64,000 bases of DNA from Bacillota bacterium (GTDB taxonomy: Bacteria; Bacillota; Clostridia; Tissierellales; Peptoniphilaceae). Positions 6,623-11,376 of the stretch are shown here, piece after piece (the stretch's first letter is position 1; each line of letters opens with the position of its first letter). A model generated the notes under the pieces. It was not told the origin of the DNA. It did no database searches and saw only the letters and a program-made list of their open reading frames with translations. Where the stretch lies: positions 18,979-82,978 of the forward strand of contig JAQYDN010000002.1 in assembly GCA_028724185.1 (NCBI GenBank), in the 5' to 3' direction. Both the position numbers and the translations under genes were made by a program.

Positions 6623-8419
6623 TTAGAGTGAAAAATAGTACTCCCTAATATACTCGGACATTTTATCTCTCCTCAACTCGAGGAAACGATGATAGTCATT
6701 TATATCCATGTCGACTATTTCTTCAGGTATCGCATTTTCTCTCAAATTTGCTCGCAAGTCATCGATATCATCGATACCGCCATATATTTGTTTATCGTCG
6801 TGCATCTGATCGAGGATTTGTTGCATATAATTGTGCGGCGCTTTATCCCCTATTCGGACGTTTATCTCGGATTGCGTATAGACGTAATTTGCCACCTGAT
6901 TGTAGTCGTTTTTATTCGTTATTCCATATCTCTTCAAATAATTTTTCGGAAAGACATGGTGGATATCTCCTCTCTCTTCGACTAATGATTTGACCTCAAT
7001 TTGTTTAGATAAAAAACCTCGTGCTCCATTTTTAATTTGAGCCATAATATATACATTGAAAGAAGGATTACTTCTAACGGAATACATCAGATTTGATTGA
7101 AGAACATTTTTCCAAAAAGCTTCAGATAGTTCGCCTTCCTCTATACGTTGTAAATAGACCTCCGGATCGTATTTATCGAAACGCCGAATATCATACTCGA
7201 AGCGAGACTCGGGCGAGCCGGAGTAACGACTCGTTAAAATACACAACACGAGCCATTTTCGAACCACTTTCTCAATAATATGCGGTTCCACTTTATCCGC
7301 TCGAAGAGATAAATAGAGCGCATATGCGAAATTAAGAGCGTTTTGAGAGCGCACAAGCGATTTATCAACGACACCGGCGGAATGAAGAATCATAATAAAA
7401 CGCTTGAAATTGGTTTCATTAACGTAATCTTCAACTCCTTCTTTTAATTTTTTAAAAGACTGCTCAGCGATAGCCTGCTTATTTTCTCTCGTCTCAAAGT
7501 CTCTTCCGGATAACAAACTCACCAGATCAGAAATTTTTCCTCTCTTAAATTTGTATGTAAACGCAACTCTGAGGACGTCCGAATAACTCGGAAGATAGAT
7601 ATCTTGTTTGTCATAAATTGCCCACTTAATTTTTCGACTTTCGTCCATAACAGAAAATTCTTTATCGTTAGAAATAATCGCTTCATAGTCCATAGGCCTT
7701 TGCCAAAAATGACAAAAATACTCTATCATCTTGCGTATAATGGGTCCGCCGAACATCGAATCGGACGATATCTTCGACATTGCGAAGTCCGCACTCGACA
7801 GGACGACACCTTGTGAATTAATCCTAATAAAAATCTCGGTTACTTCCTCAATCGATAAACTGTCGGAAAGTTCGATCACACCCAAATTAATATTTTTAAT
7901 TGCATCCAATTTGCTCATTCTCTTAGCGACTTTATCTTCCTCTCCGACGAGATCATTCTTCTTACAATATTCAGAAATGAAACTCCACTCCGAATAATTT
8001 TCTGAAAAAATCTCGCTAATATCTGAAATCCATTCCGAATTTTTAACAATTGCCGCATTTGAAACTTCAAATTTTTCTTCCATCGGGTGAAACGCGATTT
8101 TAATTCTTCGCTTTTGATAATTTTTGTCAATAATAGGATGTCCCGCCAGTGCTGCTTCAATGGCGGTTATCCTCTGCTGTCCGTCGATGAGAATTTTCTT
8201 TCCCTTAGAAAGGGTGCCATCTTTCAATACGACATCGGGATTTTTCCATATGATCAAGTACCCTACCGGATAACCCTTATATAGAGAATCCACTAAATCT
8301 CTTACTTTTGTTCCCTTCCAGACAAACGGTCTTTGAATTTCAGGGATGGCAATCTCATCAGAATGGATCCACCCCATGATATTTTTAACCTGTGTATTAT
8401 ACACGTCGAATTGAGACAT
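6623..8419 (-). CDS. DUF262 (ParB/Srx-like NTPase) plus C-terminal HNH-like domain; GmrSD-type putative Type IV restriction enzyme
   Basis: IPEIQRPFVW, LIDGQQR and FIRINSQG DUF262 motifs; C-terminal DIHHVFPK..ANY..INVRIGDKAP resembles DUF1524/HNH; AT-rich relative to flanks. Confidence 0.8.
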   Translation of the reverse strand: MSQFDVYNTQVKNIMGWIHSDEIAIPEIQRPFVWKGTKVRDLVDSLYKGYPVGYLIIWKNPDVVLKDGTLSKGKKILIDGQQRITAIEAALAGHPIIDKNYQKRRIKIAFHPMEEKFEVSNAAIVKNSEWISDISEIFSENYSEWSFISEYCKKNDLVGEEDKVAKRMSKLDAIKNINLGVIELSDSLSIEEVTEIFIRINSQGVVLSSADFAMSKISSDSMFGGPIIRKMIEYFCHFWQRPMDYEAIISNDKEFSVMDESRKIKWAIYDKQDIYLPSYSDVLRVAFTYKFKRGKISDLVSLLSGRDFETRENKQAIAEQSFKKLKEGVEDYVNETNFKRFIMILHSAGVVDKSLVRSQNALNFAYALYLSLRADKVEPHIIEKVVRKWLVLCILTSRYSGSPESRFEYDIRRFDKYDPEVYLQRIEEGELSEAFWKNVLQSNLMYSVRSNPSFNVYIMAQIKNGARGFLSKQIEVKSLVEERGDIHHVFPKNYLKRYGITNKNDYNQVANYVYTQSEINVRIGDKAPHNYMQQILDQMHDDKQIYGGIDDIDDLRANLRENAIPEEIVDMDINDYHRFLELRRDKMSEYIREYYFSL

Positions 8420-8504: not shown

Positions 8505-8540
8505 AAAAAAGGCGATCAGCTTTGCGCTAATCGCCTCTTC
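8505..8540 (-). terminator. Terminator after the CD1845-like gene
   Basis: On the minus strand GGCGATTAGC-loop-GCTGATCGCC (one mismatch) followed by T6. Confidence 0.7.
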
Positions 8541-8552
8541 TCTTGTTTTATG

Positions 8553-8834
8553 TTATATGGATCCTATCGCCCGATTGATGCCCCTTAAACACCCGACGAC
8601 GGCATCTCCCACCAACGTTATGCCGTAGGGACCGAGCAAAAATCCCACGACGGCGGCTGAAATCGCCGTCGACGGATCGTTTTTTAAAAAGAATACGACG
8701 GCGACCAATACACACAGACCCATAAACAGACGAAGAATCGCCTTACCTATATGCAAAAAGATCGACAAAACCAGCGTCAACGCGCCCAAACACACTCTTA
8801 CGGGAAAAAGGATTATTCTTAAAATCCACCTCAT
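8553..8834 (-). CDS. Small membrane protein, CD1845 family-like (normally an ICE gene)
   Basis: MRWILRIILFP start, hydrophobic core and GFLLGPYG..GINRAIGSI end resemble CD1845-family proteins as I recall them; RBS AAGGGGG. Confidence 0.65.
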   Translation of the reverse strand: MRWILRIILFPVRVCLGALTLVLSIFLHIGKAILRLFMGLCVLVAVVFFLKNDPSTAISAAVVGFLLGPYGITLVGDAVVGCLRGINRAIGSI

Positions 8835-8913
8835 CTTGTTTCCCCCTTACTCCCAACCGTTTTCGATCGCACTCGGAGCGGTTTCGCTCACCCGTCGACG
8901 TGAAGGTCGACGC

Positions 8914-9849
8914 TTATTTCGAAAAAGCGGCGAGCAATTGATAGGGACTGTATCCCACGATCACGTCGTCGTCGATGATAATCGTCGGCAATTTTTTAAA
9001 GCCTTTTGCGCGAAATTCCTCACGCGCCTCGGGATCGTTCGAAATATTTTTTTCCGTGTAGGTGGTATGCAAGCTGTCCTTCATAAAGACCTTCGCCATG
9101 TCGCAATAGTTGCAGTCGTCGATCGTGTAAATGACGACGTTTTTATCCTTGTGCACGGGCGGCGTGTAGTCACCAGCGCATGTTGTAATTTTCGCCATCT
9201 CGCTGCGCTTGATGGGGCGATGCGCCCGGAATTGTCCGTCGCTGCCGTACGGCGAGAAGATATTTGCTTCGACGAGTGCCGATACGTAGCCTGCGAGCGG
9301 CACCGGCTGATCGAGTTTGTTTCCGATCGTGCCGAGCTCGTCGGCGTCGCTAAAGTGGAGATTGCTCGTGTCTTCTCTGGGCGCGAGGCGCAGCGCGCGG
9401 GCGTAGTAAGAGGCGATTTCTCCGCGCTCGGGATAGGTCAGGTTCCCGCGATCAAAGCGCCCCGCCTTCGACGCTTCGTTCAACTGTTTCGCCGTAATGA
9501 CATTTTGTTCCAAGGCGTAGGCCGTTGCCTCGAGCGCCCAGTCGTCGACGCCCGATGCCTTGGCGATATCTCCGTAGGACAAGACGGCCTGTTTAATATC
9601 GCCTTCGGACGGATTTTTTATGCCTTGAATCAGGACGAATGTCTCGGAAAGAGAGACCGGCCGATCGGGTTTAAAGCTGCCGTCGGGAAATCCGTGGAGG
9701 ACGCCGGCGTCGGTGAGTTCCGTAATGTAACTGTAGGCCCAGTGATTTGCATCCACGTCTGAAAAAGTCTTGGCTTCGACAAATGTCGCGTGCGCGGCTA
9801 CCATCGCACACGCACACGCGATGACGCCGAATATCTTTGTTTTCTTCAT
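8914..9849 (-). CDS. Secreted SLH-domain protein fused to a C-terminal NrdH/glutaredoxin-like domain (CNYC)
   Basis: Signal peptide ending VEA; three SLH-like repeats (FSDVDANHWAY..GFPDGSFKPDRP; DGQFRAHRPIKRSEMA); C-terminal VVIYTIDDCNYC..EKNIS..KLPTIIIDDDVIVGY. Confidence 0.85.
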   Translation of the reverse strand: MKKTKIFGVIACACAMVAAHATFVEAKTFSDVDANHWAYSYITELTDAGVLHGFPDGSFKPDRPVSLSETFVLIQGIKNPSEGDIKQAVLSYGDIAKASGVDDWALEATAYALEQNVITAKQLNEASKAGRFDRGNLTYPERGEIASYYARALRLAPREDTSNLHFSDADELGTIGNKLDQPVPLAGYVSALVEANIFSPYGSDGQFRAHRPIKRSEMAKITTCAGDYTPPVHKDKNVVIYTIDDCNYCDMAKVFMKDSLHTTYTEKNISNDPEAREEFRAKGFKKLPTIIIDDDVIVGYSPYQLLAAFSK

Positions 9850-9850
9850 G

Positions 9851-10993
9851 TTAACTCCTTTCGTCTTCGACCGAAACGACGAGTTTCGGATCGACGAGAC
9901 GTCGCTGGTGTTCGAGCGTCTCTTCCAGACGCGGTCGAATCACATCGAGCCTTTCGTTCGGAATCTCGCCCGCCAAAGTGGCTCGAGCAGGGACGACCTC
10001 GTAGTGCAGCTTGTCCGTCCAATATTTATCGACATAGAGCGCTTCGGGTTCAAACGCGGCCACTCTCGTTCCCTTTTCATCTTTGACGATATCGGCGCGA
10101 ACCATTTGTCCCATCTCGACGCGGCGATCCGACATATTCTCGCGCCGTTGATTGGAGACGAAATTTCCCATCGAATAGGCAACATAGGTCGTTCCGCGGC
10201 TCCCGGGGATGTTGTCGACGCCCTGCGGGACGTGCGGATGGCTGCCTAAAATCAGCGACACGCCCTGTTCGGCGAGAAATTTCGCCTGCTCTTTTTGTGT
10301 CTCGGTCGGTTCGTTCGTGTACTCCTCACCCCAGTGCATATAGCAGACGACGATGTCGGCGCCGCGTTCGTTTAACCGCGCCATGTCGCGCTCGACGCGT
10401 TCTTTTGAAAAGACGCTTACCGCATACGGCTTGTCGCTCTCCTCGAGCAAGTGATCAAATCCGTTTAATCCGTAGGTGTAGGAGAGAAAGCCGATCTTGA
10501 TACCGTTTACGTCCTTCACGAGCGGATCGGGTTCTTTGGTTTGGGTGCCGATGACATCGAGTCCCGCTTCTTTTAAGTAGTCGTACGTTTTCTCCGTCCC
10601 CTCGCCCTGTTTGTCGTAGGCGTGGTTGTTCGCGGTAGAGATAATATCAAACCCTACCTCTTTTAAGTTGTAAGCGAGCTCCGAGGGCGACGAGAAGACG
10701 GGAAAGGTCGTATAGCCTTTTTCCCCGTCCGTCAACGTCGTCTCTAGATTAATCATAGCAATATCCGCGTCATTAATAAAGGGTTCGACGCCGTTAAAAT
10801 TATCCTTAAAGTCGTAGCCTTCTTCGGTCTGTGCCGCGTTCAACTGCGGTCTGTGAAACATCAAATCTCCGAAGGCGACGATGCGCGCCGTCTTCGGCTC
10901 GACCTGCGCGTCGCGCGCCGCCTCTTCGACGCCCGCGCCGCATCCGGTCAAGAACAAGAATAATAAACATAAGATTGCGATTGGTTTTTTCAA
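9851..10993 (-). CDS. CapA/PgsA family (PGA_cap, metallophosphatase fold) lipoprotein
   Basis: Lipobox LTGC; GDLMFH, NLET, ANNHAYD, MHWG, GSHPHV and YSMGNF motifs; TTG start with RBS GAGGAG. Confidence 0.88.
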   Translation of the reverse strand: MKKPIAILCLLFLFLTGCGAGVEEAARDAQVEPKTARIVAFGDLMFHRPQLNAAQTEEGYDFKDNFNGVEPFINDADIAMINLETTLTDGEKGYTTFPVFSSPSELAYNLKEVGFDIISTANNHAYDKQGEGTEKTYDYLKEAGLDVIGTQTKEPDPLVKDVNGIKIGFLSYTYGLNGFDHLLEESDKPYAVSVFSKERVERDMARLNERGADIVVCYMHWGEEYTNEPTETQKEQAKFLAEQGVSLILGSHPHVPQGVDNIPGSRGTTYVAYSMGNFVSNQRRENMSDRRVEMGQMVRADIVKDEKGTRVAAFEPEALYVDKYWTDKLHYEVVPARATLAGEIPNERLDVIRPRLEETLEHQRRLVDPKLVVSVEDERS

Positions 10994-11047: not shown

Positions 11048-11050
11048 CCT

Positions 11051-11376
11051 CCGACTACGTCTATAAGCCGTGTTTTGTATTCGTTAACTATCTGTCTGGT
11101 CCTTTCGTCGCCGAAAGGCTCAAGCGACCTACCTTACCGGAGGCGACGAGTCTTCGCCTTGATTCCTCTTTGGTCTTGCTTCGAATGGGGTTTACATAGC
11201 CATATAGTCGCCTATATGCTGGTGAGCTCTTACCTCGCCTTTCCACCCTTACCCGTGAAGGCGGTATCTCTCTGTTGCACTAGCCTTGGGGTCGCCCCCA
11301 CCGGACGTTATCCGGCATTCTGACTCTGTGAAGCACGGACTTTCCTCGCATATGCGCAGTTAACCGACGTACTCGG
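11051..11376 (-). ncRNA. rnpB: RNase P RNA (bacterial, type A-like)
   Basis: Minus strand carries GAGGAAAGTCC near the 5' end and ACAAAACACGGCTTAT near the 3' end; P1 pairing CCGAGTACGTC/GACGTAGTCGG; AGTGCAACAGAG and GGTAAACCCC core motifs present. Confidence 0.95.

Follow-up and report, generated by a model that had tools for sequence, protein, structure and literature searches.

What would a glutaredoxin do at the surface of a strictly anaerobic gut bacterium, displayed there on an SLH anchor? The question is raised by one gene of the window, the whole 64,000-nucleotide stretch of DNA analysed here, which comes from a genome of the genus Aedoeadaptatus; this gene joins a predicted signal peptide and an SLH module to a thioredoxin-fold domain with a CxxC motif. 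The Gram-positive extracytoplasmic thiol-redox enzymes known to us are thioredoxin- or DsbA-type proteins, membrane- or lipid-anchored and wired to CcdA, DsbB or VKOR. The kind of protein, an extracytoplasmic thiol-disulfide oxidoreductase, is already known; what is new is the unusual fold, the unusual anchor, the lack of a known partner and the restriction to one genus. On balance, we favour the reading that the fusion is a Sec-exported, wall-tethered thiol-disulfide exchange enzyme, probably a reductase, in which a glutaredoxin domain is carried on an SLH anchor. The features of the locus are as follows:

8914-9849, minus strand: SLH-glutaredoxin fusion gene, 311 aa (ORF list, Pfam SLH and Glutaredoxin matches, full-length orthologues)
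9772-9849, minus strand: Sec-type signal peptide, aa 1-26, predicted cleavage between VEA and K (read from the sequence)
9643-9768, minus strand: SLH repeat 1, aa 28-69 (Pfam PF00395; aligns to the SLH of OmpM, 8bys, and Sap, 6bt4/3pyw)
9400-9567, minus strand: middle SLH-like repeat, degenerate, about aa 95-150 (placed by its location in the tripartite module and by W104 and R142)
9193-9291, minus strand: SLH repeat 3, aa 187-219 (Pfam PF00395)
9139-9165, minus strand: linker TPPVHKDKN, aa 229-237, the fusion point (end of anchor homology; AF2 pLDDT below 50 at aa 226-233)
8917-9138, minus strand: minimal Glutaredoxin/NrdH-type thioredoxin-fold domain, aa 238-311, about 75 aa (Pfam, AF2, Foldseek)
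9103-9114, minus strand: active-site CNYC (C246 and C249, both invariant in 9 orthologues)
8983-8994, minus strand: KLPT with the cis-Pro position P288 (invariant; aligns to the cis-Pro of cGrx1)
9851-10993, minus strand: CapA-like (PGA_cap) lipoprotein gene, the translationally coupled upstream neighbour (Pfam PF09587, E 1.3e-68; lipobox LTGC)
8553-8834, minus strand: gene of a small DUF5699 membrane protein, closing the unit in the window genome only (Pfam PF18956)
8505-8541, minus strand: terminator-like hairpin at the end of the capA / SLH-Grx / DUF5699 unit (16-pair stem, then a T run)

The sequence-only reading had described a single uninterrupted ORF with CNYC at 9103-9114, a KLPT motif and no internal ribosome-binding site (RBS) ahead of the redoxin part, and each of these points stands: the 311-aa ORF contains no internal stop, both motifs lie exactly where they were placed, and no in-frame ATG, GTG or TTG accompanied by an RBS is found in the sequence between M218 and the CxxC. 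As no RBS-equipped start occurs in the stretch from the last SLH repeat to the CxxC, a free cytoplasmic glutaredoxin made from an internal start is excluded. The ATG of the fusion itself lies 7 nt past an AAAGGAG RBS and 1 nt past the stop of the upstream capA-like gene.

The junction between anchor and redoxin, which could have been an artefact, is real. Independently assembled contigs from four pig-gut metagenome runs tile the fusion gene, and those spanning the junction (8900-9241 and 9100-9353) show 0 differences and no indels, with the proviso that one of the runs may be the source sample. The orthologues are the stronger evidence: full-length relatives at 47-57% identity are encoded in seven named species, among them Aedoeadaptatus nemausensis, coxii, coli, pacaensis, urinae and ‘Peptoniphilus rachelemmaiella’, as well as in MAGs. 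Metatranscriptome contigs cover 9741-9939 (across the capA/fusion boundary), 9414-9602 and 8851-9015, and are weak evidence for transcription of the fusion gene and its co-transcription with capA.

The N-terminus, MKKTK-IFGVIACACAMVAA-HATFVEA followed by K at the predicted cleavage site, is laid out in n, h and c regions like a Sec/SPase I signal, and the N-termini of all orthologues are equivalent, with an A-x-A end directly before the first SLH motif (both judged by eye). A lipoprotein reading of ‘VIAC’ at aa 9-12 was rejected, the Cys being too near the N-terminus and unconserved in the orthologues. The protein would thus be exported by the Sec pathway. Failure of export, whether through a mis-called start or a non-functional signal, would place the enzyme in the cytoplasm, and thioredoxin-fold domains can indeed fold fast and resist post-translational Sec export, as is known from E. 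coli; this is scarcely credible, however, given that SLH modules are known only outside the membrane, that the same n/h/c layout recurs in all orthologues and paralogues, that the other 12 SLH proteins of the genome mostly have a similar signal-like N-terminus, and that no alternative start keeps the CxxC without the anchor.

The anchor of this presumably exported protein is recognised by Pfam PF00395 (E 1.8e-19, 69.9 bits against a cut-off of 20.8) in two stretches, aa 28-69 and about aa 187-219, while the middle stretch (about aa 86-165), searched alone, gives no Pfam SLH match even at E 10. Of the three SLH repeats read from the sequence at first, repeats 1 and 3 are therefore borne out by Pfam, and the middle one is degenerate and escapes it; an SLH-like repeat is nonetheless inferred there from its position in the module and because W104 and R142 hardly vary across 150 homologues. 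The anchor is homologous to SLH proteins of about 650 aa from Peptoniphilaceae up to the residues SYDY (aa 228), where the homology stops, which places the fusion point at the nine-residue linker. CsaB is needed for the pyruvylated SCWP ligand of SLH modules. The window genome (1.45 Mb, 52% GC, about 96% complete) encodes this pyruvyl transferase once, at G000:C1:57046-57900 (PF04230, E 4.2e-43), which settles the earlier query as to whether csaB is present elsewhere in the genome, and it encodes about 13 SLH proteins. In their signal peptide and N-terminal tripartite SLH module, SLH surface enzymes and S-layer proteins such as Bacillus anthracis Sap and Paenibacillus alvei SpaA resemble the fusion; what they carry is an S-layer lattice, a hydrolase or the like, whereas the payload here is a redoxin.

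The payload matches Pfam Glutaredoxin (PF00462) at aa 238-297 over the full model, 1-60 (E 4.1e-11, 43.4 bits against a cut-off of 22.9). Because the AF2 model has a mean pLDDT of 57 over the whole protein and is poor in the SLH part, where the alignment is shallow, only its glutaredoxin part was interpreted; the poor SLH model counts among the points against a surface reductase. Over aa 238-310, pLDDT reaches 85-92 and the topology is beta-alpha-beta-alpha-beta-beta-alpha, a thioredoxin-type fold lacking the additional strand and helix at the N-terminus (AF2, Foldseek), with the CxxC at the N-terminus of helix 1 and the cis-Pro before strand 3, both at positions that match the AF2 model. In Foldseek, this domain is closest to Clostridium oremlandii cGrx1 (7c10; TM 0.88, rmsd 1.2 Å, 36% identity), and it also matches Bacillus cereus BC3987 (3zij, TM 0.85), E. 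coli NrdH (1h75, TM 0.81) and actinobacterial NrdH; a sequence search of the PDB agrees that the closest solved relative is of the cGrx1 type. cGrx1 has been described as a reductant of MsrA (PMC7642778).

The earlier designation of a complete Grx/NrdH fold holds in so far as both Pfam and AF2 support a complete glutaredoxin-type domain, but the NrdH label is too specific. The NCBIfam models for NrdH, YruB, Grx3 and mycoredoxin all score far below their own cut-offs on the fused domain (TIGR02194 NrdH, 47.5 against 85.75; NF007657 NrdH, 34.1 against 131; TIGR02196 YruB, 45.2 against 88.55; TIGR02181 GRX_bact, 40.2 against 90). Membership in NrdH was rejected on these scores, on CNYC and IVGYSP in place of C[VM]QC and WSGFRP, and on the neighbours, which are capA and a DUF5699 gene with no nrdHIEF. 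The glutathione-binding motifs CPYC, TVP and GG-x-dD are likewise replaced, by CNYC, KLP and VGYS. By fold comparison and by the free glutaredoxin genes of the family, YruB appears to be the nearest subfamily, and the fused domain is best described, as far as sequence and model can tell, as a minimal clostridial glutaredoxin-like domain rather than NrdH.

The same minimal fold of about 75 aa is found in the group formed by cGrx1 (7c10), YruB, NrdH and BC3987 (TM 0.81-0.92, rmsd 1.0-1.5 Å, 27-36% identity), which shares with the fused domain an N-terminal CxxC, the cis-Pro, a G-[FY]-x-P-like C-terminal motif and the lack of the glutathione GG motif. In comparison, the members of this group occur as free proteins in the cytoplasm, where they serve MsrA or RNR and are recharged through glutathione or by thioredoxin reductase, whereas the fused domain stands behind a signal peptide and an SLH anchor and has CNYC in place of CPHC/CVQC. 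A CxYC motif with Tyr or Phe at its third position is glutaredoxin-like, not DsbA-like. The fusion protein has no Pfam match of the Redoxin/AhpC-TSA or DSBA type, and the helical insertion typical of DsbA is absent from the AF2 model of its glutaredoxin domain.

How widespread is this architecture? When 1.84 billion cluster representatives were searched exhaustively with phmmer, the best 150 contained a single other full-length match (P0022), the other 148 aligning with residues 1-236 only; in an hmmsearch of these best 150 representatives with the glutaredoxin profile only P0022 scored, no such domain being found in the remaining 148. A word-indexed homologue search limited to the glutaredoxin region gave 3 matches and is uninformative on other architectures. 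When the glutaredoxin part was searched in 151 genomes from 56 genera of the same GTDB family, a long ORF was found only in the window genus, in five of six congeners, and the other 55 genera have only free glutaredoxins of about 80 aa, up to 50% identical to the fused domain; across 400 genomes of the class Clostridia, the domain occurs in ORFs of about 80-140 aa or about 800 aa, none of them like the fusion. The literature yielded only an incidental co-mention of SLH and glutaredoxin, no paper describing the architecture, and none on exported glutaredoxin-like proteins, so that the initial impression of an uncharacterised architecture has gained in substance.

Two congeners, A. acetigenes (L048) and A. 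ivorii (L050), have the capA-like gene but lack SLH-Grx. Confinement to the window genus together with these two absences points to a recent, genus-level and dispensable invention, in which a cytoplasmic glutaredoxin gene of the YruB/cGrx1 type would have been joined, within the genus, to the N-terminal SLH anchor of surface proteins of about 650 aa. The absence of the gene from them counts against a surface reductase; it also makes the two species natural ‘minus’ strains for comparison. Free relatives of the fused domain are found in the window genome itself: a cluster at G000:C1:74636-80406 encodes two free glutaredoxin-like proteins, one of 98 aa with CPFC and one of 78 aa with CPYC, together with a cytoplasmic MsrB, a small HTH regulator and a surface protein of 763 aa with an SLH anchor, and looks like a cytoplasmic redox set of the sort from which the fused domain's relatives come.

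If the domain is a recent acquisition, is it still a working redoxin? In the full-length orthologues C246, C249 and P288 are invariant, the DYTPP junction is conserved, the active site reads C[NRSPK][YF]C and the C-terminal motif G[YF][SK]P. In close orthologue pairs, dN/dS is 0.09-0.24 for the glutaredoxin part and 0.03-0.18 for the SLH part; the former evolves 2-3 times faster than the latter, yet its ratio lies well below 1, which argues for purifying selection on the redox domain. The variable x1 residue (N, R, S, P or K) and the faster evolution count against a surface reductase. They also speak for a rival in which the glutaredoxin domain is not catalytic and is displayed at the wall for binding, for sensing, as a structural element or to ligate a metal or an Fe-S cluster. 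In class I/II glutaredoxins, a CxYC without Pro can accommodate 2Fe-2S, and the x1 variants include Ser, as in the CSYC of human Grx2; the lack of any partner found and the dispensability of the gene in two congeners point the same way. We nevertheless hold such a non-catalytic role to be quite unlikely, in view of the invariance of both Cys and of the cis-Pro under a dN/dS well below 1, of one orthologue with a canonical CPYC, which disfavours cluster binding, and of the glutathione that Fe-S binding by glutaredoxins requires, these Firmicutes not being known makers of it (textbook).

Another rival takes the product of the coupled upstream gene as the client. In this explanation, the redox domain would belong to a module for envelope modification, in which it keeps the Cys of the CapA-like lipoprotein reduced or free of thiolation. 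The translational coupling is tight, the order capA/fusion is kept in 7 relatives, one RNA contig crosses the boundary between the two genes, and the species that carry the fusion share Cys217 of CapA. However, most CapA homologues have Val in place of Cys217, which is also present in the fusion-less A. acetigenes; CapA of the window has one mature Cys, and the position of a second Cys differs between sub-clades; genera that lack the fusion have capA at this locus too, and one MAG (L004) has the fusion without capA. CapA is accordingly a weak candidate as a disulfide substrate, the partnership is very unlikely, and the link of CapA to the fusion is positional. DUF5699 was rejected as a conserved partner, being absent from all orthologous loci.

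The wall-bound enzyme that we favour must also be considered in its cellular setting. Omp85 is absent from the window genome, which makes the host a monoderm; the fusion protein would thus face the outside, there being no periplasm, and a periplasmic reading modelled on diderm Firmicutes with OmpM-type SLH was rejected on this ground. That the electron donor could not be named from the sequence at first has been sharpened into a consistent absence: CcdA/DsbD (PF02683), DsbB (PF02600) and VKOR (PF07884) are missing from 7/7 genus genomes (the window genome and six congeners), and DsbD_2 (PF13386) is missing from the window genome. No exported methionine sulfoxide reductase was found as a partner, the MsrA- and MsrB-like ORFs having no signal peptide in a motif search that could miss a divergent Msr. 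The exported SLH proteins are mostly Cys-poor, which suggests few endogenous substrates; the exception is a protein of 1232 aa with 10 Cys (C10:88869-92567), and another SLH protein (C11:44799-45821) has 3 Cys in its mature part. The lack of a recognised donor or acceptor, the Cys-poor exported proteins and the signal-less MsrA/MsrB all speak against a surface reductase.

Some of these observations lend some force to a DsbA- or PDI-like oxidase or isomerase acting on the few Cys-containing exported proteins, such as the 1232-aa SLH protein, and reoxidised by cystine or traces of O2. Without CcdA, a reductase lacks a known supply; both SLH proteins just mentioned could be clients; and a non-Pro residue at x1 occurs in PDI-like motifs (textbook). 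Such an activity is unlikely all the same: it would have neither DsbB nor VKOR for its reoxidation, it would operate in the pig gut, a strongly reducing habitat, and the domain descends from a cytoplasmic, reductant-type glutaredoxin and has no DsbA-type helical insertion. For a reductase, it is this descent, the glutaredoxin-like CxYC and the strongly reducing habitat that argue in its favour.

For the surface reductase, the following course of events may be envisaged. Once exported, the protein would bind non-covalently, through its SLH module, to the pyruvylated secondary cell-wall polymer of this monoderm Aedoeadaptatus anaerobe; the short Pro-containing linker would present the minimal dithiol glutaredoxin domain, with its CxYC and cis-Pro, at the wall surface, where it would catalyse thiol-disulfide exchange. 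The likeliest reactions would be the reduction of disulfides or mixed disulfides of surface or environmental proteins and of small disulfides such as cystine. The host being an amino-acid-fermenting gut bacterium, it could benefit from the unfolding and digestion of disulfide-rich proteins so opened, or from surface thiols kept reduced. The wall-bound redoxin enzyme proposed by the sequence-only reading has in this way gained the architecture, conserved motifs under purifying selection, CsaB with 13 SLH proteins and a monoderm host; its activity at the wall is what we infer from them.

As the canonical conduits are absent, the domain would have to be recharged by thiols or sulfide of its gut surroundings or else by a membrane system of another type, and both routes are hypotheses. 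For the second, the window genome offers one candidate. A NapH-like membrane polyferredoxin, with two Fer4_5 domains, CX3CP motifs and a C-terminal 2x[4Fe-4S] (Fer4) domain, is encoded directly upstream of a TlpA/Redoxin-type lipoprotein with a CTAC motif (G000:C1:121124-122707 for the pair, L038; 121124-121705 for the lipoprotein), which is the sole other exported CxxC candidate in the genome. The pair is kept in 7/7 genus genomes (L038-L044), all of which lack CcdA/DsbD, DsbB and VKOR, and in 77 of 80 loci fetched from distant anaerobes (L125-L204), at 61-68% identity, in taxa that include Oscillospiraceae, Lachnospiraceae, Atopobium/Lancefieldella, Treponemataceae, Flexilinea and others; such identity in very different anaerobes hints at horizontal spread. 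Thioredoxin partners are not mentioned in a paper on a ‘4Fe-4S binding protein’ of C. difficile (PMC13260099), which was left aside.

The pair is a candidate for a CcdA-independent route of reducing power to the outside. The NapH-like protein, which has its 2x[4Fe-4S] domain on the cytoplasmic side, would carry electrons of low potential through the membrane to the adjacent TlpA-like lipoprotein and from there to the wall-tethered glutaredoxin, making SLH-Grx the wall end of a ferredoxin-driven surface disulfide reductase. We regard this complete pathway as distinctly unlikely. Were it true, the NapH-like/TlpA-like pair alone would be a widespread, undescribed alternative to CcdA/DsbD. As a side observation, the occurrence of the pair in anaerobes that lack CcdA may matter more widely than the fusion itself.

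Whichever way it is recharged, the proposed wall-tethered reductase can be set against extracytoplasmic redox systems of other bacteria. Etrx1 and Etrx2 of Streptococcus pneumoniae and the MsrAB pathway of S. gordonii rely on surface thioredoxin-fold lipoproteins (PMC3914529, PMC7034828); like the fusion, they expose an extracytoplasmic CxxC tethered to the surface of a monoderm, with a proposed role in protection from, or repair of, oxidation outside the membrane. The Etrx proteins are, however, TlpA/ResA-type thioredoxins with a lipid anchor that are supplied by CcdA and work with an exported MsrAB, whereas the fusion has a glutaredoxin-type fold and an SLH anchor in a cell without CcdA, whose MsrA and MsrB are apparently cytoplasmic. 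The DsbA, BdbD and MdbA oxidases are likewise exported CxxC proteins of the thioredoxin superfamily that act on secreted proteins; they work with DsbB, BdbC or VKOR partners, whereas the fusion has neither a DSBA-family match nor a helical insertion and occurs in genomes without DsbB or VKOR. HBP35 of Porphyromonas gingivalis is a thioredoxin-motif surface protein (PMC2907840) and, like the fusion, combines such a domain with a cell-surface attachment domain in a host-associated obligate anaerobe; it differs in its diderm host, its T9SS C-terminal domain anchor, its thioredoxin rather than glutaredoxin fold and its haem-binding role.

If active, the fusion would represent a cytoplasmic redoxin fold redeployed to the surface of a strict anaerobe, and the supply of reducing power to the wall would call for an explanation, either in ambient gut thiols or in a new conduit across the membrane. 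There is a possible bearing on how asaccharolytic, protein-fermenting cocci of the gut and urogenital tract deal with disulfide-rich host proteins and with oxidative stress. As the fusion is recent and confined to a single genus, some species of which are culturable, the question is experimentally accessible.

Some minor observations concern the relatives of the domain and the surroundings of the gene. Several free glutaredoxin ORFs in related genomes of the family and class contain one in-frame TGA, for example G003:C24:15970-16176 and G077:C2:13716-13934. Selenocysteine-containing clostridial glutaredoxins are known, and these ORFs are consistent with them. At the locus itself, the fusion gene of the relatives lies between the CapA-like lipoprotein gene and an SLH-bearing gene of 445 aa, which in A. 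acetigenes follows capA directly; the window genome has no orthologue of this 445-aa gene, its SLH parts alone matching elsewhere, and a 598-aa GmrSD_N-type (DUF262) protein stands in its place (window 6623-8419, minus strand; Pfam E 6.6e-32), so that the locus has been remodelled. Upstream, the RNase P RNA gene (window 11048-11375, minus strand; Rfam RF00010, 259 bits) lies between a Nif3-like gene and capA. With a good promoter-like site for rnpB at 11411-11383 and no minus-strand terminator detected between rnpB and capA, the capA / SLH-Grx / DUF5699 unit may be transcribed by read-through from rnpB.
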